Shown in pieces: positions 6,065 through 25,114 of a stretch of 64,000 nt of DNA; the stretch's first letter is position 1; each line of letters starts with the position of its first letter. A model generated the notes under the pieces. The model was not told the origin of the DNA. It saw only the letters and a program-made list of their open reading frames with translations, and made no database searches. This DNA is from Methanosarcina sp. (GTDB lineage: Archaea; Halobacteriota; Methanosarcinia; Methanosarcinales; Methanosarcinaceae), in assembly GCA_049706495.1 (NCBI GenBank), contig JBNAKO010000030.1, forward strand, positions 40 through 64,039. Direction: 5' to 3'. A program made the translations under genes and the position numbers.

Positions 6065-6865
6065 ATGAAAATAGAATCTGTGAAATTAGTTTATTTTACA
6101 CCTACCGGAACAACAAAAGCGGTTGTTAAGGGCATTGCAAAGGGTATTAATCCGGATAACATGGAATTAATTGATATTACCAGACCAGATGCAAGAAGAC
6201 AACCGTTAATGACCTCGGAAAATGAATTGCTTATAGTTGGGGTTCCCGTCTATATGGGAAGAGTGCCAGCATTATTAATTGAATGGCTGAATTCGATTCA
6301 GGCCCATAATACACCTACTGTCTGTGTTGTTATCTATGGTAATCGTGTTTATGACGATGCACTGCTGGAACTAAAAAATACTGTAATGAAATGTGGGGGT
6401 ATTCCCATTGCCTGCGCAGCATATATCGGAGAACACTCATTCTCGAATTCTGAGACCCCAACAGCACAGGGACGTCCCGATAACCATGATCTGCACCATG
6501 CTGAAGTTTTTGGACAGAAAATATGTGAAAAACTGAAATCTATTTCATTAATTTCTCAAATTTCTGATGTATACGTGCCTGGCATTTATCCCTATAGGGG
6601 AGATTCGAAGTTATGGAATGTTGATTTTATCGCAGTAAGTAATGAGTGTTTACAGTGTGGAATCTGTGCAGAGAATTGTCCTGTTGGTGCTATTGATGCA
6701 GAAAACTCCCATTTGATTGATATTGAAAAATGCATTACCTGCTGTGCGTGTATTAAAAATTGCCCGCAAAATGCCAGATCAATGAAACCCGGGTTGGTAA
6801 AAGACGCATCGGTGCGACTCCATACGCTCTATAGCCAGCGGAAGGAGCCTGAATATTTCATCTGA
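6065..6865 (+). CDS. Flavodoxin-domain plus 2x[4Fe-4S] ferredoxin protein (EFR1-like)
   Basis: YFTPTGTT flavodoxin loop, VYMGR and YGNRVYDDAL. Two CxxCxxCxxxCP motifs. Confidence 0.9.
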   Translation: MKIESVKLVYFTPTGTTKAVVKGIAKGINPDNMELIDITRPDARRQPLMTSENELLIVGVPVYMGRVPALLIEWLNSIQAHNTPTVCVVIYGNRVYDDALLELKNTVMKCGGIPIACAAYIGEHSFSNSETPTAQGRPDNHDLHHAEVFGQKICEKLKSISLISQISDVYVPGIYPYRGDSKLWNVDFIAVSNECLQCGICAENCPVGAIDAENSHLIDIEKCITCCACIKNCPQNARSMKPGLVKDASVRLHTLYSQRKEPEYFI

Positions 6866-6968
6866 ACGAATATATTCCAGTTAAAGAAAGCGGGAAATTA
6901 GAAACGTTCATTTTTAAATCATATAACTAATAGTCATAATATGAATACAGGTTACGTGAAGTGGAACT

Positions 6969-7682
6969 ATGGGAATTGCTGAGAGAAGAGAACGAGAAAA
7001 GGAACAGCGAAAGACCGAGATTATAGATGCGGCCGAACGTCTCTTTTTTTCTCGAAATTATGAAGATGTTTCCATGGATGAGATTGCCCATGAGGTAGAA
7101 CTGAATAAGGCTACCATTTATTTGTATTTTAAAAATAAGGAGACACTTTTCGCAACCATTGTACTCCGTGGTATCCAGATCCTTAAAGAAAAATACACGG
7201 AATACATGGAAAAACAGGTGCCTGGTATTGTCAAGGTAGCCCTTATGGGCCAGGCCTATTATCAATATTCACAGGAATACCCCGATTATCTTCGAATGAT
7301 ACATTTTTACGGTTCTGAGCGTTTTTCTAAAGAAAACCCGTGTACCGCAGAGATTGGAAAGGGATATGGCACCTGCCGTATGATGCTGCGAGATGCGATC
7401 CAGGAGGGTATTGATGACGGTACAATCCGGGCCGATCTCGATCCGTTTCTGACCTCTATGTACCTTATGATCTCCTTTATGGGTATTTTGTCTATGGAAA
7501 ATAAATGGAAACTGGTGATCGAGGCAGAAGGGTTCAGCTACGAGCAGTTTGCCTGTGAATTTTTCCGGTTCATTATTCCTGCCATCTCTTCCAGCGAAAC
7601 ATCTCACAAAATGGATGTTAAAGGTTTCGCATCATTTGGGTTCTCTTTAACCGCGCCTGTGACACCTGAGAAGAAAAAATGA
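6969..7682 (+). CDS. TetR/AcrR family transcriptional regulator
   Basis: N-terminal HTH IIDAAERLF...SMDEIAHEVELNKATIYLYFKNKETL. Confidence 0.92.
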   Translation: MGIAERREREKEQRKTEIIDAAERLFFSRNYEDVSMDEIAHEVELNKATIYLYFKNKETLFATIVLRGIQILKEKYTEYMEKQVPGIVKVALMGQAYYQYSQEYPDYLRMIHFYGSERFSKENPCTAEIGKGYGTCRMMLRDAIQEGIDDGTIRADLDPFLTSMYLMISFMGILSMENKWKLVIEAEGFSYEQFACEFFRFIIPAISSSETSHKMDVKGFASFGFSLTAPVTPEKKK

Positions 7683-8099
7683 AAAAATATTAAATTTTTT
7701 AGAATTTTAAAGTTAAATTTTTTTCTCGTCTGCTGCATTTATATTCTTGATTTTCGCATCTCCAATAAGTAGGCGAGTTTAGCCCGAGATTATAAAATCA
7801 CTGGTTTTGTTCTACAAGAATCAAACTCATTTGGAGCGATCTGTTGAGTGTTCGAAGTATTAATAATACTAATCGAAATCTATATGACTTAACATTTCAC
7901 CCCAAAAACCGCTCCCTTGATCTCCTTTCATCTCCTTCCCATCCAATACTCACTTCACCCTTCTAACCTGGAAAGTCAAGAAGAGTTATTTATCATTCCT
8001 AGAGATGTATAGTTCTCAATAATTTTTTCGTTATCATTTACTTTGCAACAATTAACCTGTCAGTAATGAATTTTGCGAGAGTTTTAAATAAACATTTTT

Positions 8100-8410
8100 A
8101 AAAGAATACTTTCACCTTATTCCTAACCTCTGTTCCATAAAAGATAGTGCAGTTATCAAAGAATAGAGAGGCATGACAGACGTAAATTAAGAGAATTTCT
8201 TTGGAATTTACCGTAATAATATTGAAACAGTCAACCGTCTCATAAACCATTTTGAAAAAAGCCAACACGTGGAAGAATGTCTCAATATATCCCAAAATTA
8301 TGATGCACAGTGGGATTTTCAACCCACGAAATCCTTCGACCAGATCTTAAGTCTGGCGCCTTTAAACTGGCTTGGCAACTCTCGCATATTAAGGGCAGAT
8401 TTATAGACAT
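8100..8410 (+). pseudogene. Possible decayed coding remnant of unknown family
   Basis: A protein-like + strand frame (KEYFHLIPN...ENFFGIYRNNIETVNRL...LRADL) broken by stops. No family recognised. Confidence 0.25.
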
Positions 8411-8585
8411 CCGAGGGGTCAACTTATAAACAAAAGCAAGCTTTAATGAAAGCCCGCAATTTAATTTTTCAGATGACTCACAATTCTATAACCAGGGCAG
8501 CCGCAAAGAGAGTTGGAAGGGCTGAGAATAAAATCCTTTCCTATGATTAACCCTTGAAAGCTGAGAAAGCCTGCAGAATTCTGGC

Positions 8586-9126: not shown

Positions 9127-9624
9127 TCAAGAACATAGCACAGCTATTTTTTCAACAACATGCTGAATATCTTCTTTACCTTTGATTTTTATTGAAAAAT
9201 CAGCATACTGTTGATAAAGAATTACTCTTTCTTCAAAAAGTTCTTTAAGACTTTTATCTTTCAGTCCAATTATTCCCCTTTTTCTTGCATTTGGAATTCT
9301 TTTAACAATACTTCGAAAAGGGGTATCCAGAAAGACGATTTTTGAAATATTTTGTAAATGAAGCATGGCTTTTTGAGAATAAATAATGCTTCCGCCAGGA
9401 GAAATAATACAATTATCTATTTTTTCAAGGTTTAAAATAACTTTTTCTTCAAGTTTGAGCAGGGCAAGGTCGCCCTCTTTGTCGATAAGCTCTTGCAGAG
9501 GGACTCCGGTTTTTTCCATAACAAGGCGATCGATATCAATAAAAGTATAACCAAGGCTCTTTGCAAGCGCCTTTCCAATAGTGCTTTTTCCCGCTCCTGC
9601 CATGCCGATTAGTGTTATGTTCAT
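9127..9624 (-). CDS. aroK: Shikimate kinase, bacterial AroK/gluconate-kinase P-loop type
   Basis: NITLIGMAGAGKST Walker A, DID, E-x-x-V and SPGGS motifs, ER-x-x-LY near the C terminus. Confidence 0.8.
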   Translation of the reverse strand: MNITLIGMAGAGKSTIGKALAKSLGYTFIDIDRLVMEKTGVPLQELIDKEGDLALLKLEEKVILNLEKIDNCIISPGGSIIYSQKAMLHLQNISKIVFLDTPFRSIVKRIPNARKRGIIGLKDKSLKELFEERVILYQQYADFSIKIKGKEDIQHVVEKIAVLCS

Positions 9625-10160
9625 AAAAATATGCCCCAAAACCTCTAAGGATAGGGACGCTTCAAATCTAAATGAAACTCCGCCTAGAAATTATCATTAA
9701 ATATATAAATTATTGCTCTATACAAAAACTTTTTATAATCAGCTTAAAATTCATTCAAATTAATTATTTCCAGTATTTTCATAATTACCAGTGCTTCGAT
9801 TCCAAAGTCGATTTCTCATATTCTTTTAATTTTGGAAATATTCTTTGAGTCTTTTTTACCATCTGCCTGATCCTTACATTCAAGCATGTAACAAAATTAT
9901 ATAATTAAATAATTTTATCCCAAGTATATATTTCTTTGAATTATCAGGAATGTTTATAGTAATAATTAGTAGTACTGTATTTATTGAGACAAAGTACATA
10001 TAAATTGATATTGAATATATATTTTGGTCAAACAAATATAGTTATGCTAAAAAATTTATACAGTTGTAAAAAAGGAGTAAAATTTTGAAAAAAATGAGCT
10101 TTTTTTAGCTTTTCTTCAAAATAAAAATATTATTGTAAAAATTATCTGGAGTTACCGTTT

Positions 10161-11195
10161 ATGAAAAAGAGTTTTTTAAACAAAAAATGGATTAGCGGGT
10201 TATTATTTGTTTTTATACTAATTAGTGCTTCTTTTTCAGGTTGTGTTGATTCTGACCAGGAGCAAGAAACAGCGGCAGAAGCAGCAAAAACTACACAAAC
10301 CGAAGAAATTCCCAAGCCTCAAGCAAATATAAAAACCGAAACTGCTGTACAAACCGTTACAGAAGGAAAAAACACTTCAAAAGAGGAACTTAAAACCCTG
10401 AAAATAGGACTTATCCCTGCCGAAGATTCGGCTGAAATGATTGAAAAGTTCGAACCTGTACGGCTTTACCTTGAAAAAGAACTTGGAATGGAAGTCCAGA
10501 CTTTCACAGCCACGGATTATACATCTGTAGTTGAAGCAATGCGTTCGGACAAAGTAGATGTAGGCTTTTTCGGGCCACTTTCCTATGTACTGGCTGCTGA
10601 ACAGGCAGGAGCCGAAGCAATTATTGCAGGCGGAGAAAACGGAACTCTTGGTTCATACACAAGTTGCATTATTACATACAAAGGTTCCGAAATTAACAAC
10701 ATGGACGATCTTTTCAAGAATTCGAAAGATCTTACCTTCTCTTTTGTCGACCCCGCCTCAACTTCAGGAAACTTAATTCCCAGAGGATATCTCCTTTCCC
10801 AGGGCCTTAATCCTGACACTGATTTTAAAGAGTGCGTTTTTTCAGGCGGACATGACGCTTCAGGCCTTGCAGTAAAGTCAAAAAAAGTTGATGCAGGTGC
10901 CATATACAACATCGGGTACAACAGGATGGTCGAAGAAGGTATTCTGGATAAAGAAGAGGTTTTCATAATCTGGGAGTCCGACCCGATTCCAAGTTCTCCG
11001 ATTGCAGTCAGAGGAAGCCTGGACCCAGAGCTTAAAGAAAAAATCCAGAAGGCCTTTTTGGACTTGCAGGTAAAGGATCCTGAAGCAATGGAGATTTTTG
11101 AAAGCCAGTGGGAAGAAAATAAAGAATATGTACCAGTCAATGACAGTACATACGATTACATCCGTACCATTGCCAGGGGCCTTGATTATATTTGA
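10161..11195 (+). CDS. phnD: Phosphonate/phosphite ABC transporter substrate-binding lipoprotein
   Basis: Lipobox FSGC. GLIPAED, DYTSVVEAM, FGPLSYV, DPASTSGNLIP and GGHDAS motifs. First gene of the phn cluster. Confidence 0.92.
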   Translation: MKKSFLNKKWISGLLFVFILISASFSGCVDSDQEQETAAEAAKTTQTEEIPKPQANIKTETAVQTVTEGKNTSKEELKTLKIGLIPAEDSAEMIEKFEPVRLYLEKELGMEVQTFTATDYTSVVEAMRSDKVDVGFFGPLSYVLAAEQAGAEAIIAGGENGTLGSYTSCIITYKGSEINNMDDLFKNSKDLTFSFVDPASTSGNLIPRGYLLSQGLNPDTDFKECVFSGGHDASGLAVKSKKVDAGAIYNIGYNRMVEEGILDKEEVFIIWESDPIPSSPIAVRGSLDPELKEKIQKAFLDLQVKDPEAMEIFESQWEENKEYVPVNDSTYDYIRTIARGLDYI

Positions 11196-11207
11196 AGGTG
11201 GCCTGAG

Positions 11208-11951
11208 ATGCTAACTGTGAATAACCTTGCAAAAAAACTTCCGGACGGCAGATATCTGCTAAAGGATATAAATTTCAGTGTCAGAAAGAGTGAATTTGTT
11301 GCAATACTGGGGCTTAGCGGCACCGGGAAAACAATCCTGCTCAGGTGCCTGAATGGCCTTACAATGCCTGATGCAGGCAGGGTTTTGCATACCCATAACG
11401 AGGAGACGCTGGACATTGTGTACAGCAATCCTAAAACAATCCGGGAAATCCGAAAAAGGACAGGCATGATTTTTCAGAACTTCAACCTGGTAAAGAGAAA
11501 ATCCGTAATCGAAAATGTGCTTATGGGGAAGCTGGGAAATATGCAGACCCTTGGCAGTATTCTTGGAAAATTCACGGATGAAGACCTGGAAATGGCTTCA
11601 AGAGCTCTTTACAGGGTAGGAGTCCTGAACCTTGCTCATCGGAGGGCAGGTACCTTAAGCGGGGGAGAGCAGCAAAGAGTTGCAATATCCAGGGCAATTA
11701 TGCAGGAACCGCATCTTTTACTTGCAGATGAACCTGTAGCAAACCTTGATCCTACAACTGCAGATTCCGTGATGAGATATCTTAGATCGATTTCAGTAGA
11801 AGACGGAGTCAGCACACTTGCAGTACTTCACCAGCCTGAACTTGCCCGGAAGTATGCTACAAGAATTATTGGAGTAAGGGGCGGGGTCGTTGTTTATGAT
11901 GGAGACCCGAAAATTCCGGAAAGCTCCTTAAAAGAGATCTATGGAATGTGA
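11208..11951 (+). CDS. phnC: Phosphonate ABC transporter ATPase
   Basis: GLSGTGKT, MIFQNFNLV, LSGGEQQRVAI, LADEPVANLDP and VLHQ motifs. Confidence 0.93.
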   Translation: MLTVNNLAKKLPDGRYLLKDINFSVRKSEFVAILGLSGTGKTILLRCLNGLTMPDAGRVLHTHNEETLDIVYSNPKTIREIRKRTGMIFQNFNLVKRKSVIENVLMGKLGNMQTLGSILGKFTDEDLEMASRALYRVGVLNLAHRRAGTLSGGEQQRVAISRAIMQEPHLLLADEPVANLDPTTADSVMRYLRSISVEDGVSTLAVLHQPELARKYATRIIGVRGGVVVYDGDPKIPESSLKEIYGM

Positions 11952-12833
11952 GTGATTATGATAATTCAAGAAGGGTTTTTAAGCGGGAATCTTGAAAAAA
12001 AGTCAACTAAACCGCAGTATAATCTTGATGAAGGTTATAAACGGGTAGATAAAATCCGGAAGTCGAGGCTCTATCATTATATTCTGCCTGGACTGATATT
12101 TATTTTCTTAATCTGGAGTATTATCAGTACGGATTTTAGTCTAACTGCCCTTGTTGAAGGTTATCCGTATATTATAGACTTCCTGGCCGCAATGTTTCCG
12201 CCAGCCTGGGATAAGTTCATACCTATGATCGAGCCTGCTGTCGAAACAATACAAATGGCATTCCTTGGTACTTTTTTCTCGGTCTTGCTTTCAATTCCGA
12301 TTGCAATTTTTGGGGCAAATAATTTAACTTCCTCAAAACTGTTGAGAGGAATTTCAAGGAGCTTGATCGCTTTCACAAGGACTGTGCCTGACCTTGTATT
12401 CGCATTAATTTTCGTTTCTGCAGTTGGGCTTGGGCCTGTTCCCGGAATTCTTGCGCTCTCTATCCATTCTATAGGGATGCTTGGAAAACTGTATGCAGAA
12501 GCAATAGAAGAAATAGACATGGGGCCTGTAGAAGCAATGGAAGCCCTTGGAGCAAGTAAGCTTCAGTCAATTTTTTATGCCATAATTCCGCAGGTAACTC
12601 CTTCTTTTGTGGCTGCAACCCTTTACAGGCTTGATATCAATGTCAGATCTTCTATAGTGCTTGGGTTAGTAGGAGCAGGTGGAATAGGATTTGAACTTAT
12701 GATGGCGATGAGGTTATTCAGATACGAAGAACTCCTTTCTATCCTGATTATCATCTTTGCAATTGTATTGTCTGCAGAAGCAATCTCAAATTCTATCAGG
12801 AAAAACATCATTGGGGAGGAAACCTTGAAATGA
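11952..12833 (+). CDS. phnE: Phosphonate ABC transporter permease
   Basis: ETIQMAFLGT, RTVPDLVFAL, GMLGKLYAEAIE and DINVRSSIVLGLVGAGGIG motifs. Confidence 0.93.
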   Translation: MIMIIQEGFLSGNLEKKSTKPQYNLDEGYKRVDKIRKSRLYHYILPGLIFIFLIWSIISTDFSLTALVEGYPYIIDFLAAMFPPAWDKFIPMIEPAVETIQMAFLGTFFSVLLSIPIAIFGANNLTSSKLLRGISRSLIAFTRTVPDLVFALIFVSAVGLGPVPGILALSIHSIGMLGKLYAEAIEEIDMGPVEAMEALGASKLQSIFYAIIPQVTPSFVAATLYRLDINVRSSIVLGLVGAGGIGFELMMAMRLFRYEELLSILIIIFAIVLSAEAISNSIRKNIIGEETLK

Positions 12834-13249
12834 ACAGGGATCGCAGGTTTGAGTTGCTTGCACGGGCAGGCAAAGAAGAATTATGCAAGCTTGCAGAAAA
12901 GGTGCTCGAAGATGTGGATATAAAGGTTGTAAAAAAACCGACACCAGGTATGATTATGATGCGCTGCAGGGATAATGCCCATTCCTGTGTATTTAATTTC
13001 GGAGAAGTCCTTGTAACAGACGCTGAGGTAAGTATAGAGAATTCGACAGGATACGCAATGGTAATGGGTATGGAACCTGAGAGAGCGCTTGCGGGTGCTA
13101 TTCTGGATTGTGCAGTAGAAGCAGGGCATGCCCTTACATCAGAGATTCTTTTTATGCTGCAAGCAGAAGAGCAAAGGCTGCAGGAAGAAAAAGTCAGGAC
13201 CTGGAAAGAAATCGAAACTACAAAGGTAGATTTTGAGGTGATGCTGTGA
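12830..13249 (+). CDS. phnG: C-P lyase complex subunit PhnG
   Basis: PTPGMIMMR...FNFGEVLVTDAEV...G.AMVMG...ALAGAILD. ATGA overlap with phnE. Confidence 0.92.
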   Translation: MNRDRRFELLARAGKEELCKLAEKVLEDVDIKVVKKPTPGMIMMRCRDNAHSCVFNFGEVLVTDAEVSIENSTGYAMVMGMEPERALAGAILDCAVEAGHALTSEILFMLQAEEQRLQEEKVRTWKEIETTKVDFEVML

Positions 13250-13905
13250 TAGGGGCCAAAGACTCCGATTTTGACCATGTATTTGATTCCCAGCATATCT
13301 TCAGGGTACTTCTTAATACTATGGCCAAGCCCGGAAAGATCGGTATACTCCCAAGTCTGGCTATTAATCCTCCTGAAGAAAACCCGTATCCTTTCCTTGT
13401 ACTACTTGCTTTGCTGGATAGAGAAGTAAGTTTCAGTGTTCAAGGAAATGTAAAAGATCCCGAGAAAGTTATGAAATACCTTGAACTGAATACAGGAAGT
13501 AAACCCGGAGACTTGGGAACCTCTGATTTTATATTCGTGTATGGAGGTAGCTCGAAAGGGCAGGTTTGCAGGGCAAAAACAGGCAGTTTCAGATATCCTG
13601 ATAAAAGTGCAACAATTGTGTATGCTATAGATTCTATTTCTGACCCTACTTCTAACTTTACTTCTGATTTTATTTCTAACTCTGTTTCCGATAGAAGGGC
13701 TTCGGAAAAAGAAAAGGTTTTACTCGAACTCTCAGGTCCCGGAATAAAGGAAAAATGTATGTTAGCGTTTTCCGGAATCGAAAAAAAAGAGATACAGGAC
13801 CTTATTTCAGTCAGGGAATTCCCGCTTGGAATTGATGCTATGTTTTGTGATAAAAAAGGCAGGATAGTAGGTATCCCAAGGTCTTCCAGCGTAAAGATAT
13901 CCTGA
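13246..13905 (+). CDS. phnH: C-P lyase complex subunit PhnH
   Basis: SQHIFRVLLNTMAKPG, ALLDREV, GSFRYPDKSAT, LSGPGI and FPLGIDAMF...GIPRS motifs. Confidence 0.92.
   Translation: MIGAKDSDFDHVFDSQHIFRVLLNTMAKPGKIGILPSLAINPPEENPYPFLVLLALLDREVSFSVQGNVKDPEKVMKYLELNTGSKPGDLGTSDFIFVYGGSSKGQVCRAKTGSFRYPDKSATIVYAIDSISDPTSNFTSDFISNSVSDRRASEKEKVLLELSGPGIKEKCMLAFSGIEKKEIQDLISVREFPLGIDAMFCDKKGRIVGIPRSSSVKIS
13633..13692 (+). repeat. In-frame 12-bp tandem repeat x5 inside phnH
   Basis: tctatttctgac cctacttctaac tttacttctgat tttatttctaac tctgtttccgat. Confidence 0.8.
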
Positions 13906-13914
13906 GGGACAAAG

Positions 13915-15198
13915 ATGGGTTATGTACTTGTAAAAGGGGGAAGTGAAGCCATAAAAAATGCAAAGAGGCTGGTTGAGCTAATTCGTACCCAGGCTTCTGA
14001 ACCTCTGGAAATTTCGCAGTTGAAAGGCAGGCTAAAGCTGGCTGTTGACCAGGCAATGGGAGAAGGCGGGCTTTATGCACCTGAAACAGCAGCCCTTGCG
14101 CTTGAGCAGTCAGAAGGCGATATCATAGAAGCCTCCTTTAAGATAAGGGCATATCGAACTACCCTTCCCAGAATATGTTATTCCGAAACTCAAGATACAG
14201 AAGATATGTTTGTCCTTCGCAGGATTTCCTCGGCTTTCAAGGATATCCCTGGAGGACAAATTCTTGGCCCAACGATTGATTACACTCAGCGGTTCATCGA
14301 TTTTGGTCAGGAGGAAAACAAAAAAGAAGCCAAAATCAAAAGCCAGAACCGGATCAAAAATGAAAAAGGCAAAATCCCCGAGAATGAGGATAAATCAGGA
14401 ACTTCTGAGCTGACAAACTCTAAATTAGAAAATTCTAAGCTTGTAAATTCTAAGTTAATAAATTCCAGATTATCAGATTTCAAGTTATCAGATTTCAAGT
14501 TACCAGATTCTAAACTGACAGTTTCTGAAAAACAGGAAGAAAACTATGAATTCCCAGCTTTTAAGAAAATTGTTGATCTTCTAAAAGAGGAAGGAGTCAT
14601 TGAAGTCCCTGCTGGATCTTCGCTAGATGAAGAAGAGCCTTATGATGTAACAAAAGATCCGCTTGTTATTCCGGCTTCAAGGTCAGCTCGTTTGCAGACC
14701 CTGGCAAAAGGAGAGACAGGAGCAATGCTGATGTTTGCCTACAGTATCCTGCGAGGGTTTGGAGCAACCCATCCAACACTTGCAGAATTAAGGGTCGGAT
14801 ATATTCCTCTTCGAATAAAACACCCTTATACCGGAAATATAGTAAGTGTAGGGGAGATTCTGGTAACGGAGTGCGAATGTATAAATTCAGGAATGGGGTC
14901 TGGCACTTCCAAAAATATAACTGAAAATAAGAAATTTGCTATGGGATACGGGCTTGTAATGGGGAAAAACGAGAGAAAGGCTATTTCCATGAGCATGCTT
15001 GATGCAGCAATGAATACTTCTGAACCCAAGGCCCCTGCCGAGGATGAAGAATTTGTTCTTTATCATATAGATGGAGTGGATGGGATGGGATTTGTAGAAC
15101 ACCTGAAACTGCCTCATTACGTATCTTTCCAGTCAACTCTTGATAGGTTAAGGGCAGTACAGAAAAAAACAGAACCGGAGAGCTCGGCAAATGAGTAA
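13915..15198 (+). CDS. phnI: C-P lyase subunit PhnI (ATP/phosphonate nucleosidase)
   Basis: YVLVKGG, MGEGGLYAP, RAYRTTLPR, RRISSAFKDIPGGQILGPT, HPTLAELRVG, GKNERKAISM and YHIDGVDGMGFVEHLKLPHYV motifs. Confidence 0.95.
   Translation: MGYVLVKGGSEAIKNAKRLVELIRTQASEPLEISQLKGRLKLAVDQAMGEGGLYAPETAALALEQSEGDIIEASFKIRAYRTTLPRICYSETQDTEDMFVLRRISSAFKDIPGGQILGPTIDYTQRFIDFGQEENKKEAKIKSQNRIKNEKGKIPENEDKSGTSELTNSKLENSKLVNSKLINSRLSDFKLSDFKLPDSKLTVSEKQEENYEFPAFKKIVDLLKEEGVIEVPAGSSLDEEEPYDVTKDPLVIPASRSARLQTLAKGETGAMLMFAYSILRGFGATHPTLAELRVGYIPLRIKHPYTGNIVSVGEILVTECECINSGMGSGTSKNITENKKFAMGYGLVMGKNERKAISMSMLDAAMNTSEPKAPAEDEEFVLYHIDGVDGMGFVEHLKLPHYVSFQSTLDRLRAVQKKTEPESSANE
14416..14520 (+). repeat. In-frame 15-bp tandem repeat x7 inside phnI
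   Basis: Units such as aattctaagcttgta, aattctaagttaata and gatttcaagttatca encode NSKLE-NSKLV-NSKLI-NSRLS-DFKLS-DFKLP-DSKLT. Confidence 0.85.
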
Positions 15199-16069
15199 GC
15201 TTGAAAGTTTATTAAAAAATGAGAATATTATTGAGAAAGGGTATAATTTTGCGTTTCTTGATGAATTTACGAAGCGAGAAGTCAGAAGAAATATTCTTAA
15301 AGCCATAGCGATTCCGGGTTATCAGGTGCCTTTCGGGTCAAGAGATATGCCGCTTGCACGAGGTTGGGGGACAGGCGGAATTCAAATAACTCTTTCCATT
15401 ATTGGAAAATCCGATGTCCTTAAGGTTATTGATCAGGGATGCGATGACAGTATTAATGCCCTGAATATTAAAAACCTGATCAGCAGGATGACCGGAATTA
15501 AGACAACCGAGGATACAAAAGAGGCAAATATTATTCAGACCCGGCACAGGATCCCGGAAGAGAAGATGACAGAAGAGCAGATCCTTGTTTTTCAGGTGCC
15601 CGAACCTGAGCCGCTGAGAAAAATAGAGCCTAGTGAAGTTGAAACCAGAAGAATGCATGCCCAGAAAGATTACAGTGCCATGTGGCTCCACCTTTACGAG
15701 GATATTGTCAGGCATGCTCAGATCACGGTCAGTTCCTGTTATCCTGTAATGGTTAACAGCAGATACATTATGGATACAACTCCAGTTCCCAGATGGGATG
15801 TGCCCAAACTGCATAAATCCGGAGCCATAAACATTTTTTGTGCTGGCAGGGAGAAACGAATCTACGCAATTCCCCCGTTCACAGAAGTTGAGCCTCTTGA
15901 ATTCGAGGATTATAATTTTTCAGTAGAGGATTTTGCAGGAAAGGCCTGTGAGAAATGCAGGAGCACGGAGACTTATCTTGATGAAATTCTTGATGAAAGT
16001 ACAGGTATCAGGCGGTATTTCTGTTCGGATACAAGCTATTGTGAAAAGGTCAGGCAGGGAAAAGCATGA
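15191..16069 (+). CDS. phnJ: Radical-SAM alpha-D-ribose 1-methylphosphonate 5-phosphate C-P lyase
   Basis: GYNFAFLDE, AIAIPGYQVPFGSR, RGWGTGGIQ (glycyl-radical Gly region) and IQTRHRIPE motifs. Intact CX2CX21CX5C. Confidence 0.97.
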   Translation: MSKLESLLKNENIIEKGYNFAFLDEFTKREVRRNILKAIAIPGYQVPFGSRDMPLARGWGTGGIQITLSIIGKSDVLKVIDQGCDDSINALNIKNLISRMTGIKTTEDTKEANIIQTRHRIPEEKMTEEQILVFQVPEPEPLRKIEPSEVETRRMHAQKDYSAMWLHLYEDIVRHAQITVSSCYPVMVNSRYIMDTTPVPRWDVPKLHKSGAINIFCAGREKRIYAIPPFTEVEPLEFEDYNFSVEDFAGKACEKCRSTETYLDEILDESTGIRRYFCSDTSYCEKVRQGKA

Positions 16070-16950
16070 GTTCAACCTTGAATAAGTCCGATTTTATTAG
16101 CCCGATTAACAAGCCCAGAATTAATAATCCGATTCTCAGAGTCCAAAATCTTACAAAAATTTATGGAGAGGGCTGTCCGGACTGCATTGAACTAACAGGC
16201 CCGGCTTATGGAAGTAATATCTGTCCAGTTTGTAACTCGATTGTAGCCTGTGCACAGATTTCTTTTGAGGTAATGGGTGGAGAAATCCTTGGGATTGTCG
16301 GGGAAAGCGGTTCAGGGAAAAGCACTACTGTCCGTTGTCTTTACTATGATGAGGAACCCACAGCAGGAGAGGCCTATTTAAGCTGTTGTGGGGAACAAAA
16401 TATTTTCAGGTTGAGTGCTCAGAAAAAACGAGAAATTCGGAATTTTTATACTGGTATGGTTTACCAGAATCCTCAGCTTGGGCTCAAGCTAGATATCTCG
16501 GCTGGAGGAAACATTGCCGAAAAATTGCTGGCTGCAAACTGGAGGCATATGGGAAAAATGAGGGAGAGAGCCCGAGAACTCCTTGAACAAACTGAAATCC
16601 CTATAGAACGGATGGACGAAATTCCCCGCAATTTCAGCGGAGGAATGCAACAGCGAATCCAGATTGCAAAAGCCCTGGCAAATAATCCTGAAATTCTTCT
16701 TTTTGATGAACTGACAACCGGCCTTGATGTATCTGTGCAGGCAAGAATTCTGGACCTTATAAAGCAGATCAGAAGAATTACGGATGCAGGGATGGTCCTG
16801 ATTACACACGACCTGGGGGTAGTAAGGCTGCTTGCAGATAGGACCCTTGTAATGAAAAATGGGCGGATTGTTGAATCCGGACTTACGGACCAGATTCTCG
16901 AGGATCCCCAGCACGAATATACCCAGCTCCTTGTAAATTCGGTTTTGTGA
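16066..16950 (+). CDS. phnK: C-P lyase ABC-type ATPase PhnK
   Basis: GIVGESGSGKS, GMVYQNP, SAGGNIAE and FSGGMQQRIQIAKAL motifs. C-terminal DQILEDPQHEYTQLLVNSVL. Confidence 0.94.
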   Translation: MSSTLNKSDFISPINKPRINNPILRVQNLTKIYGEGCPDCIELTGPAYGSNICPVCNSIVACAQISFEVMGGEILGIVGESGSGKSTTVRCLYYDEEPTAGEAYLSCCGEQNIFRLSAQKKREIRNFYTGMVYQNPQLGLKLDISAGGNIAEKLLAANWRHMGKMRERARELLEQTEIPIERMDEIPRNFSGGMQQRIQIAKALANNPEILLFDELTTGLDVSVQARILDLIKQIRRITDAGMVLITHDLGVVRLLADRTLVMKNGRIVESGLTDQILEDPQHEYTQLLVNSVL

Positions 16951-16951
16951 G

Positions 16952-17704
16952 GTGAACTGTTTGGAAAACTGGCATTTAGAAATCCAGAATCTAACGAAAA
17001 CATTCAAGATGAGCGTACTTGGAGGCAAACAAATACACGGTTTTCATAATATAAGTTTCAGGGTTCAAAGAGGGGACTTTATGGGAGTTATCGGAAAAAG
17101 CGGTTCAGGAAAGTCCTCCCTTCTCAAATGCATTTATCGAACCTATATCCCGGACAAAGGATATGTTCTTTATAAAAACGAGGATGGAGAGATAACAAAT
17201 CTAACTTTTGCAGATGACCATACTCTTCTGGACTTTAGAAAGCAGGAGATAGGGTACGTGGCACAGCTTTTAAGAGCAGTACCCAGAGTTACGGCTCTTG
17301 AAATCATTGCAGAGCCTCTTCTTCTGAAGGGGGTTGATCCGGGTATTGCAAAAGAAAAAGCAGCCCGGTATCTCGAACGCCTGCTTATTCCGGAAGAACT
17401 CTGGGAAGCTTATCCTTCGACTTTCAGTGGGGGAGAAAGACAAAGAGTAAACATTGCAAGGGCCCTGATTTCAGCGCCCAAGCTCCTGCTTCTGGATGAG
17501 CCTACATCTGCTCTTGACCCTGTCTCTACACAAATAGTAGTCGAAATGCTTGAGGAAATAAAGCACAAAACAACCATGATAGGGATTTTTCATGACATGG
17601 CAGTTGTAGAAAAACTTGCAGATCACCTGCTCGTAATGAAGGACAACAAAATGAGAATGTTTGGAAAAACAGAGGAAGTCCTGGCTACAGAGGGCTTAGC
17701 ATGA
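16952..17704 (+). CDS. phnL: C-P lyase ABC-type ATPase PhnL
   Basis: GKSGSGKSSLLKCIYRTY, EIGYVAQLLRAVPR, YPSTFSGGERQRVNIAR, LLDEPT and GIFHD motifs. The start may be the TTG at 16961. Confidence 0.94.
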   Translation: MNCLENWHLEIQNLTKTFKMSVLGGKQIHGFHNISFRVQRGDFMGVIGKSGSGKSSLLKCIYRTYIPDKGYVLYKNEDGEITNLTFADDHTLLDFRKQEIGYVAQLLRAVPRVTALEIIAEPLLLKGVDPGIAKEKAARYLERLLIPEELWEAYPSTFSGGERQRVNIARALISAPKLLLLDEPTSALDPVSTQIVVEMLEEIKHKTTMIGIFHDMAVVEKLADHLLVMKDNKMRMFGKTEEVLATEGLA

Positions 17705-18876
17705 GATTCAACATCATTAATGCAAAAATTGTAACGCTGGATTCAGTTATTGAAAATGGCACGCTTGAGATAGAAGATAAAAATATTATAGGCATCAGGG
17801 AAAAAGAAGAAATTGAATCAGGAAAAGAAATCGAGACTGCCAAATCTGACGGAGTGCTTGATGCAGCAGGCAAATATGTTTTGCCCGGAATAATCGATAT
17901 TCATGGAGATGACCTTGAAGGAGTTATTTCTCCAAGGCCTTCGACAAGGTTTCCTATAGAACTTGCTCTTTTGCAGGCTGACAGAAAATATGTAGCCTGG
18001 GGAATTACAACAAAACTGCATGCCCTTTCATATTATGACGACGAGCTTAAAGACAGACATGCTGGAGCCTCTATTGAAATTATGGAAGCTCTGGAATGTA
18101 TTGAAGATAAACTCCTGACTGAGCATTTCATTCATGTGAGGTGTGAAATCGGGCATGAAATGAAAGATGCTTTCGAAGCCATTGAGAACCGTTTTGTTAA
18201 ACTGGTTTCGGTAATGGACCATGCTCCAGGCCAGGGGCAGTTTAATGATCCTGCAAAATACATCGAATTCCACAAGGGAGCATATAACTTGAGTGATGAA
18301 TTCCTGGAAAAGCTCATGAAAAAGAAAATGGATCTCAGTTTCAGTGATTTGAAGTTAGAGAAGATAAGGGAAGTTGCCAGAAGAGCAAGGGACAGGAACT
18401 TGCTTTTGGCCTCCCATGATGATGACAGTCCTGAACATGTGGAATTCTTACACAGTCTTGGAGCCTGTCTTTCAGAGTTTCCTATAAATTTGGAAGCTGC
18501 AAAAAGAGCAAAGGAGTTGGGAATGATCATTTCAATGGGAGCCCCGAACCTCATCCTTGGAAGATCGACTGCAAATAACCTCAGTTGTCGGGAGGCCATA
18601 AAGGCAGGGGCTGTAGATGTACTTTGCTCGGACTATTACCCAACTTCGCTTCTTTATTCCGCGTTTCTGCTGCAAAAACTCGAGCTTTTGCCCTTCCCTG
18701 AAGCTGTTAAAATGATAACTTTAAACGCTGCAAAAGTTATGAGCATGGAGGAAAGCATTGGTTCGATTGAAGTGGGAAAACGAGCTAATCTTATTATTGT
18801 TTCTGAAAAGGACGGAATGCCTGTAGTTAGTAATACTATTGTTAATGGGAGACTTGTATACTCGGCGGGAGGATAA
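17701..18876 (+). CDS. phnM: Ribose 1-methylphosphonate 5-triphosphate diphosphatase (amidohydrolase)
   Basis: LPGIIDIHGDDLE, MDHAPGQGQF, ASHDD, SEFP, MGAPNLILGRS and CSDYYP motifs. Confidence 0.95.
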   Translation: MRFNIINAKIVTLDSVIENGTLEIEDKNIIGIREKEEIESGKEIETAKSDGVLDAAGKYVLPGIIDIHGDDLEGVISPRPSTRFPIELALLQADRKYVAWGITTKLHALSYYDDELKDRHAGASIEIMEALECIEDKLLTEHFIHVRCEIGHEMKDAFEAIENRFVKLVSVMDHAPGQGQFNDPAKYIEFHKGAYNLSDEFLEKLMKKKMDLSFSDLKLEKIREVARRARDRNLLLASHDDDSPEHVEFLHSLGACLSEFPINLEAAKRAKELGMIISMGAPNLILGRSTANNLSCREAIKAGAVDVLCSDYYPTSLLYSAFLLQKLELLPFPEAVKMITLNAAKVMSMEESIGSIEVGKRANLIIVSEKDGMPVVSNTIVNGRLVYSAGG

Positions 18877-18878
18877 GA

Positions 18879-19691
18879 ATGAGATTTGGAGCATCTACCG
18901 ACCTTCGGTTCGGGCAGAATAATATAGAATTCCTGGAAATTCTATATTTCAACGGATTCAGCCATATCGAAATCAGAAAAGATAGCGATCATGTATACGG
19001 ACAGGTAAATCCAAGTACATTGCGAAGAAGCTTATCAAAATACGGGTTCACGGTCTCGTATCATGTTCCCCACAGGGAGTTTAATCTCGCAAGCGTTAAT
19101 GAGGATATAAGGAAATGTTGCGTATCCCAGGTAATAGCTATAGGAGAGTATTTGCATGAAATAGGCCAGGGATGGGTGAATATTCATGCCGGACATGTCC
19201 CGAACAGTTATCATAAAAACGCTATTATTAAGGCTAAATCGAATTGTATGAAGTCCCTTGATGAAATTGCAGAGGCCTTTAAAGCCCTGAATACCGAAAT
19301 CTTTTTAGAAAACGACAGTAAGGAAAACGGATTAATCAAATTTGGGCTTACTCCGGTGCAAATGAAAGGACTTTTGGAAGATTACCCTGAATTTTATATG
19401 ACTTTTGATCTGGGACATTGCCATAATTCAGGATTTCAGCCTTTAAATTTTATTGAGCCTCTAAGGGATAAAATCCGGGCTGCACATTTACATGATAATC
19501 ACGGCATTAAAGATGAACATCTGGCCCTTGGGGAAGGAAATGTTGATTTTGCATCTGCTATAAAGCTCCTTGAAGACTGCTGCGAATATTATATTTTCGA
19601 AATGAGATCGCTTTCAGATATAATAAAAAGCAGAGAATATTTGGAATTAATAAAAAATAAAGAGCATATTGAATCCCTGAAGGTTAAATAA
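18879..19691 (+). CDS. Xylose-isomerase/AP-endonuclease-2-like TIM-barrel metalloenzyme
   Basis: NIHAG, LEND, TFDLGH, AAHLHDN...DEHLALGEG and FEMR metal-ligand pattern. Starts 2 nt after the phnM stop. Confidence 0.88.
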   Translation: MRFGASTDLRFGQNNIEFLEILYFNGFSHIEIRKDSDHVYGQVNPSTLRRSLSKYGFTVSYHVPHREFNLASVNEDIRKCCVSQVIAIGEYLHEIGQGWVNIHAGHVPNSYHKNAIIKAKSNCMKSLDEIAEAFKALNTEIFLENDSKENGLIKFGLTPVQMKGLLEDYPEFYMTFDLGHCHNSGFQPLNFIEPLRDKIRAAHLHDNHGIKDEHLALGEGNVDFASAIKLLEDCCEYYIFEMRSLSDIIKSREYLELIKNKEHIESLKVK

Positions 19692-19948
19692 CTACGATTA
19701 AGGTAAATTAAGTACAATTAAAGGTTAAAAAACCACAATCAATGAGTTTTAACTGGCGCTTTACAAATAAAATATTTTCATGTACATAATAAAGAAATTA
19801 CATTTAAAGAAATTAAAGTATTTTAAAAAATTAGAGTATTTTTCCAGGCTATTTTTTTGGCTAAAATTAGTGAAGGAAATTGAGACCGAAGCAGGTTTTC
19901 AGGTTTTCAATTATTCAACAAAAAAAGGAAAAACAAAGGGGGAAAAGT

Positions 19949-20599
19949 ATGCCAGAAGAAATTAATTTCTTCCCTCAGGCTTTGCAAAAAGAAAATAAGA
20001 AGCTTAACGAAAAACCCACTCTACATCCTTCTTCTCAAATAATTAACTGCAAAATCGGGGCCTGGACAGAAATCGGACCTAATTCGCTTCTTATAGAAAC
20101 TGTATTTGAAGATTACAGTTATGCAGATGGAGATGTCTCAATAATATATTCCGAAATCGGAAAATTCTGTTCAATTGCCTCTCATGTAAGAATAAATCCC
20201 GGAAACCATCCAATGGAACGAGTAACCCAGCATCATTGCACTTATCGCCGCATACAATATGGTTTTGATGAAGTTGACGATGAGAACTTTTTTCAATGGA
20301 GGCGAGAGCATAAATGCATAATCGGGAATGATGTCTGGCTTGGGCATGGGGCTGTTATAATGCCTGGAGTAAAGATCGGGACCGGAGCTGTAGTAGGAAC
20401 AGGTGCAGTTGTCACAAAAGATGTGGCTCCTTATGAAATAGTTGCCGGCGTTCCTGCAAGTCCTATTAGAAAGAGATTTTCCGAGGATATAATTGAAAAA
20501 CTCCTGGAAATAAAATGGTGGGACTGGGATAGAAGAACTCTCAAAACAAGGTTTTTTGATCTGATGGATGTTAATAGTTTTGTCAGGAAATACTACTGA
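19949..20599 (+). CDS. Hexapeptide-repeat (LbH, Xat/CatB-like) acetyltransferase of the type found in phn clusters
   Basis: IGKFCSIASHVRINPGNHPMER, IGNDVWLGHGAVIMPGVKIGTGAVVG and VAGVPASPIRKRF motifs. GGGGG SD before the ATG at 19949. Confidence 0.9.
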   Translation: MPEEINFFPQALQKENKKLNEKPTLHPSSQIINCKIGAWTEIGPNSLLIETVFEDYSYADGDVSIIYSEIGKFCSIASHVRINPGNHPMERVTQHHCTYRRIQYGFDEVDDENFFQWRREHKCIIGNDVWLGHGAVIMPGVKIGTGAVVGTGAVVTKDVAPYEIVAGVPASPIRKRFSEDIIEKLLEIKWWDWDRRTLKTRFFDLMDVNSFVRKYY

Positions 20600-20664
20600 T
20601 ATTTTAGATCTATTAGTAATAATATTTTAGATCTGTTACTACCAATATTTTAGCCCGTTTTTAT

Positions 20665-21075
20665 TCACTTCCCTCTTTGCCCACCCTGTTTTATCTGGGA
20701 TTTTGCATTATTAAGTTTGTAAATGCCTTTCTCCAGCTTTTCGGAAGAATTCAAAAAAACTTCCATGTATTCTGAAAGCACAAGTTTAGATCCTGAGATA
20801 TAATATTTAAGTAAGCTTCTGGTTGTCAATTTATCCATATGTTCGAGGGAAATAATAGCGAGATACATAAGCAAGCGTAATAAAAATACCAAATTAAGAG
20901 CCAGAATTTTAACCCAGGGACTATCTGAGCTAATCGCCATTCCACAAATCCAGTTACAAAATTTAATGGATTGTGCAAGGAGCCTTATTTTGTAAAAATG
21001 CAAGAACAAAGCCAGGACTAAAAGGAAAGTTATGCATTTTACTATAGAAAAAAAATCATACGTTATTAAGTTCAT
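20665..21075 (-). CDS. Hypothetical protein (doubtful; only the C-terminal part may be real)
   Basis: 136-aa ORF with no recognisable motif. Confidence 0.3.
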   Translation of the reverse strand: MNLITYDFFSIVKCITFLLVLALFLHFYKIRLLAQSIKFCNWICGMAISSDSPWVKILALNLVFLLRLLMYLAIISLEHMDKLTTRSLLKYYISGSKLVLSEYMEVFLNSSEKLEKGIYKLNNAKSQIKQGGQRGK

Positions 21076-22355: not shown

Positions 22356-23876
22356 TTACTGGAGCCCGTAAATTCCAGGAATTCTCTTTAAAAGCATGCC
22401 TTCAACTACTATAGGGTTTGTCCTCTGAGCAGTAACTAATGCGGTTTCCAGCTTAAACTCCTTTTCAGCATAGATTGTAAGAATCGAATCGCCTTTCTTA
22501 ACGCCTTCTCCCATTTTCTTGTGGATGGCTACCCCTGCTCCTTTGTCATTAGGAGCTCCCGCAAGTCTGGCAATCTCTATTATCCATTTGTTGTCAAATT
22601 CGATAACATACCCATCCGCCGAGGCAAAAATATCTGCAGTATACTGTCCTGCCTGGATATCATTTGAGGTAATTGTCGCGTCTCCGCCCTGTGCTTCTAT
22701 AATTTGTTTCATTTTTTCCAGGGCTTTGCCGCTTCTGAGGGTTTCCAGGGCAAGTTTCTTTCCCTGATCTCTTGCAGCAGCTCCTCCCATTTCGAGCAGG
22801 ATTCCTGCAAGGGCAGCACTCTTTTCGATAAGGCTATTTGGGCCTTCCATGGTTTCCAGGACCTTCAAAGCTTCCCTAACTTCAAGACAGGGGCCCACTT
22901 TTCTCCCTATAGGGGAAGATCCGTAAGTGATTGCACATTCGACATTCATTCCAAGCCTGTGTCCGAGGTTAATCAGGTCTCTTGAGAGTTTTTGCCCATC
23001 CTGGACAGTAGGGACTTTGGTGCTCGGGCCTACAGGAATGTCTATTACTACATTGTCTGCCCCTATTGCTCCTTTTTTTGCCATAATCGAGGCCAGCATC
23101 TGGTAATAAGGGTCAATCGAGAGAGGATATTCGACCCTGATCAATTTATCATCTGCAGGCGCGATATTTGTGGCCCCACCCCAGACAAGGGCTCCTCCTA
23201 CTTTTTCGGTAATTTCCTTTACTTCTTCGGAGCTGAATTCCACGGGACTGAGAACTTCCATGAGATCTGCAGTTCCACCTGCGCCTGTAATTGCTCTTGA
23301 ACTGGTTTTCGGGATTAAAAGCCCGTTTGCTGCTATAATAGGGACAACCAGAAGAGAAATTTTATTTCCGGGCACTCCACCTATTGAATGTTTGTCCATT
23401 ATTGGATGAGTGTCAAACTCAATTTTGTCACCGCTGTCAATCATAGCTCTAGTGAGCCATTCAACTTCGTCATCAGTCATTCCATGGATGTAAGAGGCAG
23501 TTATAAACGCTGAGAGTTCGATATCGCTGAGGTTCTCCTCTACAATATCATTAACAAGCATTTTAATTTCGTCCTGTACAACAGGTTTCTTGTCCATCAT
23601 TTTCTTGATTACACCTGCAGATTTGGAACGAAATGCAGGGACAACTTCAACTGGCTTATCCCATTCTTTAAAATGCTCAAAAACTTCAACAAAAACGCCC
23701 AGAGTTCCCGGAGGAACCATGTCTTCTGTTGTGTCTACAATCGCAGACAAACTTTCCCTCCCGCGAATTCTTACCCTATCCCCAGGATAAACTCCAAGCT
23801 CTTTTGCATCGGCTATGTTGAACAAGACTTTGTGCTGTCCTATTTTTATATTAAAATGTTGTAGCTTTAACTGCAA
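22356..23876 (-). CDS. deoA: AMP (NMP) phosphorylase, archaeal thymidine-phosphorylase family
   Basis: N-terminal extra domain. DKHSIGGVPGNK, PKTSSRAITGAGGTAD, GGATNIAPADD and ARLAGAPNDKGAG motifs. GGAGG SD before the TTG start. Confidence 0.95.
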   Translation of the reverse strand: MQLKLQHFNIKIGQHKVLFNIADAKELGVYPGDRVRIRGRESLSAIVDTTEDMVPPGTLGVFVEVFEHFKEWDKPVEVVPAFRSKSAGVIKKMMDKKPVVQDEIKMLVNDIVEENLSDIELSAFITASYIHGMTDDEVEWLTRAMIDSGDKIEFDTHPIMDKHSIGGVPGNKISLLVVPIIAANGLLIPKTSSRAITGAGGTADLMEVLSPVEFSSEEVKEITEKVGGALVWGGATNIAPADDKLIRVEYPLSIDPYYQMLASIMAKKGAIGADNVVIDIPVGPSTKVPTVQDGQKLSRDLINLGHRLGMNVECAITYGSSPIGRKVGPCLEVREALKVLETMEGPNSLIEKSAALAGILLEMGGAAARDQGKKLALETLRSGKALEKMKQIIEAQGGDATITSNDIQAGQYTADIFASADGYVIEFDNKWIIEIARLAGAPNDKGAGVAIHKKMGEGVKKGDSILTIYAEKEFKLETALVTAQRTNPIVVEGMLLKRIPGIYGLQ

Positions 23877-24261
23877 AAATAAACGCCTCCAATGAACTAA
23901 ATCGTGAGTATAGATTCTTTCTTCCAGGCCTTTTTTCCGGATTTTGCCTGAATTTAGTTACCTGTTAGTACCTGTTCCCCAAACCTGATGACTATTAAAA
24001 AAGCCAGTATGAATATAGCTTGGAAAACTATATGCGAGTGTTAATTAGAGGTAGAATAATAAGTTTCATTTATCTTAAGTAGTTTTGCAAAAAGAAAGTA
24101 AGAAAGAGATGGTAAAATGTAATAAATCTTTAATAAAGAGATATTATAAAGTACCAATATAAAGATAAAAATAAAAGATAAAATACTAACTTTTATAAAA
24201 AACTTTTTTATAAAGAGAATTAATTTCAGTATTTTAAATTATACCTGAATTATACCTGATT

Positions 24262-24489
24262 TTATTTGTAATATTTTTTTGTCATATTGCGCCTTGAAAT
24301 AGAGACAAGTCCTTTGGCGACCCCTATTGAGACAACTGCAATCAATAGTGTTGTTACAATAACCATTGTCAGATTTTCCTGATCAGCAAATCTGAACATA
24401 AGAAAAAACAAAATTGCGTTTATAACTGCTCCAACGGCTACAAGAGCTATTCCAGGGCCTTTCAAAACATCTTGGGTATTCTTATTCAT
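24262..24489 (-). CDS. Small membrane protein with two TM helices
   Basis: Two hydrophobic segments and a basic C terminus. Confidence 0.65.
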   Translation of the reverse strand: MNKNTQDVLKGPGIALVAVGAVINAILFFLMFRFADQENLTMVIVTTLLIAVVSIGVAKGLVSISRRNMTKKYYK

Positions 24490-24892
24490 CTTCCACAACC
24501 TTCAGAGATTATTTTTCAGAGACTTATGATTATTTATTAAAACGTATGGGTAATTTACCAGTTCAATATGCTGGATTCTAAAAGAAAATGCCTGCTTATA
24601 TTTTTAGGAACAGGTAAAGTTTGCAAGTAGGAAAAATCTACATGAAGCTAAATATTATAAATATTTCTCCAAACAATTGAGATAATTGCATATAAACCTT
24701 AGGTAATTTTGTTCTTAAATACTCAAACAAAATTATATTTCTTTCTATTATAATGGTTGCTGAAGCAAAAAAAGGATGCGATAAAAACTCGAGAAAGGAT
24801 ATTCTGGCGCTCAAATTTTCAGCAAAGCTATGCCTTTTAATAACGTTTTTTAAAATATTGCTCAAGAAAATTTACGCTCAGGAAAATTCATT

Positions 24893-25114
24893 TTAAAGGA
24901 ATTCCAGACAGAGGTCCACATAGTATTCTTTTGCAATAGTTTTAAGCCAGTCAGGAACCAGACCATATCTGTCAATTATAAGTTCATTCAGGTAATAAAG
25001 AGACTCTTCGGTTCTACATTCACAGAGTCTTCGTACAGCAGTTCTCCTGCCCCAGGCAGACCTTTCCTCATCGAGCGCCTCAAGGTAAAGTTCGTATTCT
25101 CTGCTATTCTCCAT
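24893..25114 (-). CDS. Small hypothetical protein (single HEAT-like hairpin)
   Basis: LEALDEERSAWGRRTAVRRLCE...SLYYLNEL pattern with protein-like composition. Confidence 0.6.
   Translation of the reverse strand: MENSREYELYLEALDEERSAWGRRTAVRRLCECRTEESLYYLNELIIDRYGLVPDWLKTIAKEYYVDLCLEFL

Follow-up and report, generated by a model that had tools for sequence, protein, structure and literature searches.

Gene content and boundaries of the locus

The stretch of DNA described here, called the window below, is 64,000 nucleotides (nt) long and belongs to the draft genome of a Methanosarcina sp. (assembly GCA_049706495.1, contig JBNAKO010000030.1, positions 40 to 64,039 of the forward strand). It carries a gene cluster assigned to phosphonate transport and carbon–phosphorus (C-P) lyase. 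Ten co-directional, full-length open reading frames (ORFs) on the forward strand at window positions 10161–18876 correspond to phnD-C-E-G-H-I-J-K-L-M, and two further genes follow. All 12 ORFs are uninterrupted. Identification is by NCBIfam and Pfam profile matches, with bit scores compared to the curated cut-offs and the models covered nearly end to end. Nine of the ten Phn proteins, including all three transporter proteins PhnCDE (equivalog cut-offs) and the full-length C-P lyase core proteins PhnG, PhnH, PhnI and PhnJ, exceed these cut-offs; PhnK is the exception. The features are, in order (aa, amino acids; ABC, ATP-binding cassette; SAM, S-adenosylmethionine; RPnTP, ribose 1-phosphonate 5-triphosphate):

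9127–9639, minus strand: shikimate kinase, native left flank (PF01202; 74–75% DNA identity, syntenic in four genomes of the genus)
9625–10160: left junction, with the AT-rich, presumed promoter region of phnD (homology to relatives ends at 9624; G + C (GC) content 23% in the 400 nt upstream of phnD)
10161–11195, plus strand: phnD, phosphonate-binding protein with a signal peptide (TIGR03431, 271.7 bits, cut-off 261)
11208–11951, plus strand: phnC, ABC ATPase (TIGR02315, 281.6 bits, cut-off 266)
11952–12833, plus strand: phnE, single permease gene (TIGR01097, 304 bits, cut-off 217)
12830–13249, plus strand: phnG (TIGR03293, 114 bits, cut-off 89)
13246–13905, plus strand: phnH (TIGR03292, 128 bits, cut-off 91.5)
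13915–15198, plus strand: phnI (PF05861, 437.9 bits; PDB 7z15_C matched in two blocks)
15191–16069, plus strand: phnJ, radical-SAM C-P lyase (PF06007, 463.5 bits; alignment to E. coli PhnJ)
16066–16950, plus strand: phnK, ABC-type ATPase (best match TIGR02323, 239 bits, below the equivalog cut-off of 302.85)
16952–17704, plus strand: phnL, ABC-type ATPase (TIGR02324, 256.4 bits, cut-off 256.3)
17701–18876, plus strand: phnM, RPnTP diphosphatase of the amidohydrolase type (NF011990, 408.6 bits, cut-off 233)
18879–19691, plus strand: MJ1311-like TIM-barrel gene of the xylose-isomerase/endonuclease-IV fold (PF01261, 84 bits)
19949–20599, plus strand: hexapeptide-repeat acyltransferase of a phn-associated family (TIGR03308, 277.7 bits, cut-off 201.65)
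20591–20659: three 23-nt tandem repeats, right junction (local)
20665–21075, minus strand: conserved 136-aa ORF, native right flank (without a match in Pfam or NCBIfam; relatives are homologous again from 20771–20797)

An earlier note on this DNA described phnD-C-E-G-H-I-J-K-L-M as tightly coupled, with no overlap or gap above 12 nt, and the ORF coordinates and family matches confirm it. Gaps of 12, 0, 9 and 1 nt separate D/C, C/E, H/I and K/L; E/G, G/H, J/K and L/M overlap by 4 nt and I/J by 8 nt; the TIM-barrel gene begins 2 nt past phnM. The operon range given there, 10161–20599, holds the ten phn genes and also the two others, the last of which is not tightly coupled because a repeat-rich spacer of 257 nt precedes its start. 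The longest ORF of this hexapeptide transferase runs from TTG 19880; its start is likely ATG 19949, by comparison with a 219-aa Methanolobus orthologue (71% identical). Tandem repeats of 18–20 nt occupy 19680–19842 in the spacer and are local only.

The assembly has a size of 4.15 Mb in 296 contigs, with 91.8% completeness and 0.9% contamination (estimate 0.91%). It encodes McrA, three copies of MtaB and acetate kinase, a combination present, among 14 named control genomes, in Methanosarcina acetivorans only. By these markers the host is a methanogen of the Methanosarcina type, as the earlier note held.

The cluster and both its flanks share one contig, and four genomes of the genus show synteny with the flanks at 71–85% DNA identity. 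The distance from shikimate kinase to the 136-aa ORF is 331–387 bp in those four genomes, which represent the empty site, versus 11.2 kb here. The comparison covers relatives other than the nearest species (G177, 94% AMP phosphorylase identity), whose contig ends short of the site. Since the flanks adjoin each other in four relatives and are syntenic on both sides, the region at about 9625–20660 is, on this comparison, a 12-gene island of ~10.8 kb in a native Methanosarcina-type contig. As to scars of mobile elements, no tRNA genes and no Rfam matches were found in the window, and flanking direct repeats are not above chance, save for the local 23-nt triple repeat. Copies of this repeat were found neither elsewhere in the genome nor in the empty sites of the relatives. 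Genomes of the genus without the island have AMP phosphorylase (22356–23876) in this position too. Its proximity is for this reason not evidence of linkage; it is a by-product of the insertion site, not of co-transfer.

The only pstSCAB-phoU genes of the host are on another contig (C206), not adjoining the island. A Pho-box-like motif shared by the 400-nt upstream regions of phnD and the host pstS was sought and rejected: the best ungapped matches (12/14, 14/18 and 16/22) equal those in shuffled and in real AT-rich controls. A scan for sigma-70 promoters and terminators was at chance level and is not meaningful for an archaeon.

Protein features and selection

PhnJ is homologous to E. coli PhnJ (PDB 4xb6_D) with confidence over residues 16–290 (E 2e-110). 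Its residues C253, C256, C278 and C284 align with E. coli C241, C244, C266 and C272 and bear out the CX2CX21CX5C spacing reported earlier. In E. coli PhnJ, Gly32 bears the radical and Cys272 the thiyl. The counterpart of Gly32 is G43, in the motif AIPGYQVPF. The codon of G43 is at 15317–15319; the four cysteine codons are within 15947–16042. The motif GWGTGG, which the earlier note took for the glycyl-radical region, corresponds to E. coli residues 47–52, and the radical glycine of AIPGYQVPF lies 14 residues upstream. Both motifs are conserved in the window PhnJ, but the radical glycine aligns to AIPGYQ, not to GWGTGG.

At the N-terminus of PhnD a hydrophobic stretch is followed by SFSGC (Cys28) and this in turn by an acidic linker rich in Thr and Glu. 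The N-terminus of the host PstS is arranged alike, with GIGC. The archaeal-style lipobox ascribed to PhnD is, by this motif and common layout, supported at the level of motif. PhnI carries a window-specific, in-frame expansion of a 15-nt tandem repeat (DNA 14430–14509, residues about 160–205), which encodes pentapeptide repeats of the NSKL/DFKL type in the variable linker that joins the protein's two conserved halves. The expansion is missing from the three closest relatives aligned. PhnK has an N-terminal CX2C-12-CX2C insert (residues 37–56, window 16174–16233), with four cysteines that do not vary among the four clade members aligned. E. coli PhnK is without this insert, and the match to it begins only at residue 63 of the window protein. 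The insert may form a zinc ribbon or an additional site for a metal.

Ratios of nonsynonymous to synonymous substitution (dN/dS) are 0.04–0.11 versus the nearest relatives, where dS is unsaturated. Judged by these ratios, PhnGHIJKLM are under purifying selection.

Distribution and origin of the cassette

Within the genus the cassette is present in this species only: PhnJ was found in none of the 58 other species searched (genomes of 2.3–5.8 Mb; counts here and below are of species-representative genomes). One other genus of the family, g26, is positive (3 of 10 species), the sole one among 15. PhnJ also occurs in 8 of the 27 species of the sister family f3, in 2 of the 105 species of family f8, which belongs to another order, and in a few further lineages of the phylum. 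Two matches are sequence-identical to records of Ca. Methanoliparum thermophilum and of a metagenome-assembled genome (MAG) of Methanocella. PhnJ and McrA are encoded together in at least four other species-level genomes. By our inference from the literature f3 and g26 resemble the anaerobic methanotrophic archaea (ANME) ANME-2 and ANME-3, with which published groups they are equated on that footing, and f8 resembles Methanotrichaceae.

The nearest relatives of the window PhnJ in a large protein database are 90% identical (on a 2.7-kb JGI metagenome contig), 84% identical (on a Logan contig) and 80% identical (in Methanolobus sp. MAG GCA_030156065.1); an exact look-up of the sequence returned no identical record. 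In the PhnJ tree the window sequence clusters with the Methanolobus MAG and both metagenome contigs at 100/99 support. The sister of this cluster is the ANME-like clade of g26 and f3 (100/96), and the two, joined by the two f8 sequences, make up a clade of Methanosarcinia or unnamed metagenome sequences only (96/93). The operon is collinear with the ANME-like loci of f3 and g26, with 44–78% identity per protein versus 28–69% for six sampled bacterial loci. PhnM is 52–56% identical to the f3 and g26 proteins versus 34–38% to bacterial, Methanocella and Methanoliparum proteins.

A close counterpart is the cluster of the Methanolobus MAG (contig JASGNE010000029.1), which has the identical 12-gene order, phnDCEGHIJKLM followed by the AP_endonuc_2 (TIM-barrel) and hexapeptide transferase genes, with PhnJ 80% and PhnK 84% identical to those of the window. 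It differs in that it continues with a PHP-family gene and pstSCAB-phoU (L124, 10015–14815) and that its PhnI is without the repeat insert. Copies of the cassette on Logan contigs are preceded by PPK2; this phosphorus-stress context (PPK2, PHP, pst) is missing in the window.

The operons of ANME-2c and ANME-3 are likewise found in hosts of the same class that bear methyl-coenzyme M reductase (MCR); they share the collinear phnDCE-GHIJKLM order with a single phnE, and their PhnJ falls in the same well-supported clade. Collinear phnD-M followed by the TIM-barrel gene is seen in loci L112–L115 and L124–L126, and the TIM-barrel gene was not seen in L116–L118; among the ANME-like loci it follows phnM in four of the six examined. 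The window differs from the ANME operons in its host, a Methanosarcina-type methanogen and not a methanotroph, and in its proteins, only 44–78% identical. With the Methanolobus MAG it forms a separate sister subclade, and in the ANME-like contigs no hexapeptide transferase was seen. The ANME C-P lyase operons adjoin pst phosphate-transport genes (PMC12106651), whereas the window island does not.

All transport and core genes of the E. coli operon phnCDEFGHIJKLMNOP (4xb6, 7z15–7z19) are present, and Gly32 and the four cysteines of its PhnJ are conserved. The window differs in the order D-C-E, in the lack of phnF, phnN, phnO and phnP, in the Cys4 insert of PhnK and in the added TIM-barrel and hexapeptide transferase genes. 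Cassettes of the anaerobe type from Thermodesulfobacteriota, Nitrospirota and Syntrophales share the phnD-C-E...G-M order without phnF, phnN and phnP, with PhnJ 61–70% identical, but most of them carry two phnE genes.

Recent transfer was also looked for by composition and rejected: GC content, GC at third codon positions and codon usage are host-like and give no signal. The GC content of the operon is 41.1% versus an ORF mean of 40.8%, and its codon usage is within random expectation. Because codon usage is host-like, dN/dS is 0.04–0.11 and the PhnJ clade is one of Methanosarcinia only, the cassette is, on the evidence of sequence, not a recent bacterial import; it is long-resident, selected and of a lineage circulating within Methanosarcinia.

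Two neighbouring segments were also recorded. The window differs from its relatives a second time at 5166–8583, a single-copy segment of 3.4 kb that holds a flavodoxin/2x[4Fe-4S] protein (6065–6865) and a TetR regulator (6969–7682); its counterpart, 82–89% identical, is elsewhere on the chromosome in at least four other genomes. The 2.3 kb at 23877–26221 have a GC content of 29% and contain neither an ORF of at least 100 aa nor a tRNA or Rfam match; parts of them are conserved in one relative at 76–77% DNA identity.

Predicted function, alternatives and significance

The 12-gene island is likely a phosphonate-utilisation cassette that serves phosphorus acquisition, yields an alkane as a stoichiometric by-product and belongs to a lineage specific to Methanosarcinia. 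The steps proposed are modelled on E. coli biochemistry. Phosphonates would be taken up by lipid-anchored PhnD together with PhnCE. PhnI, with PhnG, PhnH and PhnL, would couple the phosphonate to the ribose C1 of ATP with displacement of adenine, and PhnM would strip pyrophosphate. Radical-SAM PhnJ, using G43, the C253/C256/C278 cluster and C284, would break the C-P bond and give 5-phosphoribosyl-1,2-cyclic phosphate and an alkane, namely methane from methylphosphonate and ethane from ethylphosphonate. PhnP and PhnN being absent, the conserved TIM-barrel protein would be the best candidate for opening the cyclic phosphate, and ribose-1,5-bisphosphate (R15P) isomerase and RuBisCO of the host could carry the product onward.

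The TIM-barrel protein has the AP_endonuc_2/xylose-isomerase fold. Among solved structures the nearest is that of MJ1311, an uncharacterised protein of M. jannaschii (PDB 3wqo, E 2.5e-26); a weak match to the cobamide phosphodiesterase CbiR (47.7 bits) is below the cut-off. In the Methanolobus MAG and four ANME-like loci the gene likewise comes after phnM, with 51–60% identity. Among the 80 nearest loci of the genome collection, nearly all bacterial, a distant homologue (24–25% identical) follows phnM in only two, and the hexapeptide transferase occurs in six. The protein is a candidate for the missing back-end enzymes, the best one found. The genome encodes R15P isomerase (495 bits, above cut-off) and RuBisCO, so an archaeal onward route for the product is conceivable. 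We tentatively suggest, while holding it doubtful, that the C-P lyase of Methanosarcinia has an archaeal back end, in which the MJ1311-like enzyme would convert 5-phosphoribosyl-1,2-cyclic phosphate to ribose 1,5-bisphosphate, and R15P isomerase and form III RuBisCO would lead from there to 3-phosphoglycerate. True methanogens short of phosphate would, on the same proposal, emit a little methane or ethane that is insensitive to 2-bromoethanesulfonate (BES) and has a non-MCR isotope signature.

Several observations weigh against assigning the island to phosphorus acquisition in this way. In the genome, 91.8% complete, PhnN has no match, and for PhnP only sub-threshold metallo-beta-lactamase matches were found (best 98.7 bits versus a cut-off of 272); no PHP homologue was found in the genome either. 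Usable phosphorus would therefore have to be freed by an uncharacterised enzyme. PhnK is below its equivalog cut-off (239 versus 302.85 bits), yet this model is its correct best match and its position is correct. Phosphate control is unsupported, because no regulator gene was found in the cluster and no motif is common to its upstream region and the pstS promoter. The genome is a draft of 296 contigs, and an old ancestry of the cassette may be kept in play by its divergence from the Methanolobus MAG, similar to that of native Pst proteins. The operon, called intact in the earlier note, is so at its front end; neither PhnN nor a true PhnP was found in the genome, and phnF and phnO are not among the genes between 9625 and 20660, where the TIGR03308 hexapeptide transferase is found instead.

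The draft state and the completeness of the assembly, together with the lack of these genes in every other species of the genus searched, would fit a binning or assembly artefact in which bacterial or ANME DNA is misjoined to a Methanosarcina contig. Such a chimera is improbable because two false joins would be needed; the flanks on one contig, syntenic with four genomes, the host-typical composition and codon usage and the contamination estimate of 0.91% make it an explanation to which we give almost no credence. That the cluster is instead a silent or dead-end relic, its cyclic phosphate unusable and of no benefit without PhnP and PhnN, agrees with the lack of both in the genome searched and of a PHP gene, unlike the Methanolobus MAG, and with the repeat expansion in phnI and the repeat-rich spacer grown before the last gene. 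All 12 ORFs are intact, however, dN/dS is 0.04–0.11, and the architecture free of phnN and phnP is kept in the Methanolobus MAG and in ANME-like genomes, so a relic is very unlikely. A different history, in which the common ancestor of Methanosarcinaceae already had the cassette and many losses followed, in place of a gain by this lineage, draws on phn proteins 52–84% identical to those of the Methanolobus MAG versus 70–75% for native Pst proteins, a divergence about equal, on a fully host-like composition and on the limitation of the PhnJ clade to the class Methanosarcinia. It has to be set against the clean empty site in the relatives and the presence of PhnJ in none of the 58 other species and in only one other genus of 15. 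AMP phosphorylase, a single protein 86–94% identical to those of the genus, suggests that the genome lies inside the genus and is not its first branch. The empty sites, the count of 0 in 58 and the AMP phosphorylase identities favour gain by this species, and we regard an ancestral cassette as rather unlikely.

The remaining alternative concerns the substrate. The cassette may be functional with aminoalkyl or other phosphonates as its natural substrates, in which case C-P lyase would seldom or never form methane and would be a route to it largely in name. C-P lyase of E. coli is established as broad-spectrum; to our knowledge, methylphosphonate is a substrate of every characterised C-P lyase, which speaks against so narrow a role. 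The TIGR03308 acyltransferase of the island would, by analogy with PhnO, act on aminoalkylphosphonates, and methylphosphonate gave no stimulation of methane in sediment tests (PMC12422968). The sequence holds nothing that excludes methylphosphonate, and the specificity of PhnD cannot be read from it. Restriction to such substrates is rather unlikely, and a phosphonate-utilisation cassette with an alkane by-product is the reading followed below.

Growth yields of methanogens are 2–7 g of dry cells per mol of CH4, and phosphorus is 1–3% of dry mass. From these figures of general knowledge the phosphorus demand is estimated at about 0.7–7 mmol per mol of CH4, so that a phosphorus supply entirely of methylphosphonate would add roughly 0.07–0.7% of MCR-derived methane, that is, less than 1%. 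The earlier note spoke of a second route to methane. PhnGHIJKLM, with the catalytic residues of PhnJ intact, agree with it; the wording is overstated, as one alkane is formed per phosphorus atom, methane arises only from methylphosphonate and the amount is estimated at below 1% of MCR methane. The C-P lyase route is real in principle and independent of MCR, and isotopes or ethane might serve to trace it; it is not an energy metabolism.

Complete C-P lyase operons and methane formation driven by methylphosphonate were proposed in 2025 for ANME-2c and ANME-3 (Ca. Methanovorans) (PMC12106651; PMC12180501). The methanogen genomes compared in PMC12180501 are stated there to lack the full locus. In a salt-pond study the mcr and phn pathways were concluded to reside in different organisms, and phnJ was noted in haloarchaea (PMC8692437). 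A literature search of incomplete coverage turned up no account of C-P lyase in Methanosarcina, Methanolobus, Methanocella, Methanothrix or Methanoliparum. For MCR-bearing archaea as such the proposal had already been made, with ANME-2c and ANME-3 (PMC12106651; PMC12180501). Within the literature found, the window provides the first documented case of this cassette, known from ANME relatives, in a methanogen of the Methanosarcina type.

The reports of 2025 on ANME are hereby extended to bona fide methanogens. The gene phnJ commonly serves to indicate bacterial, aerobic methane production, and sensitivity to BES to indicate archaeal methanogenesis; a methanogen with C-P lyase blurs both assumptions, the small flux notwithstanding. 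The genetic tools of Methanosarcina make the archaeal cassette testable, including the TIM-barrel back end and the Cys4-bearing PhnK. An archaeal back end, if true, would link phosphonate catabolism with the archaeal pentose-bisphosphate pathway. For the ecology of the group, the cassette suggests that some methanogens meet phosphate scarcity by the use of phosphonates.

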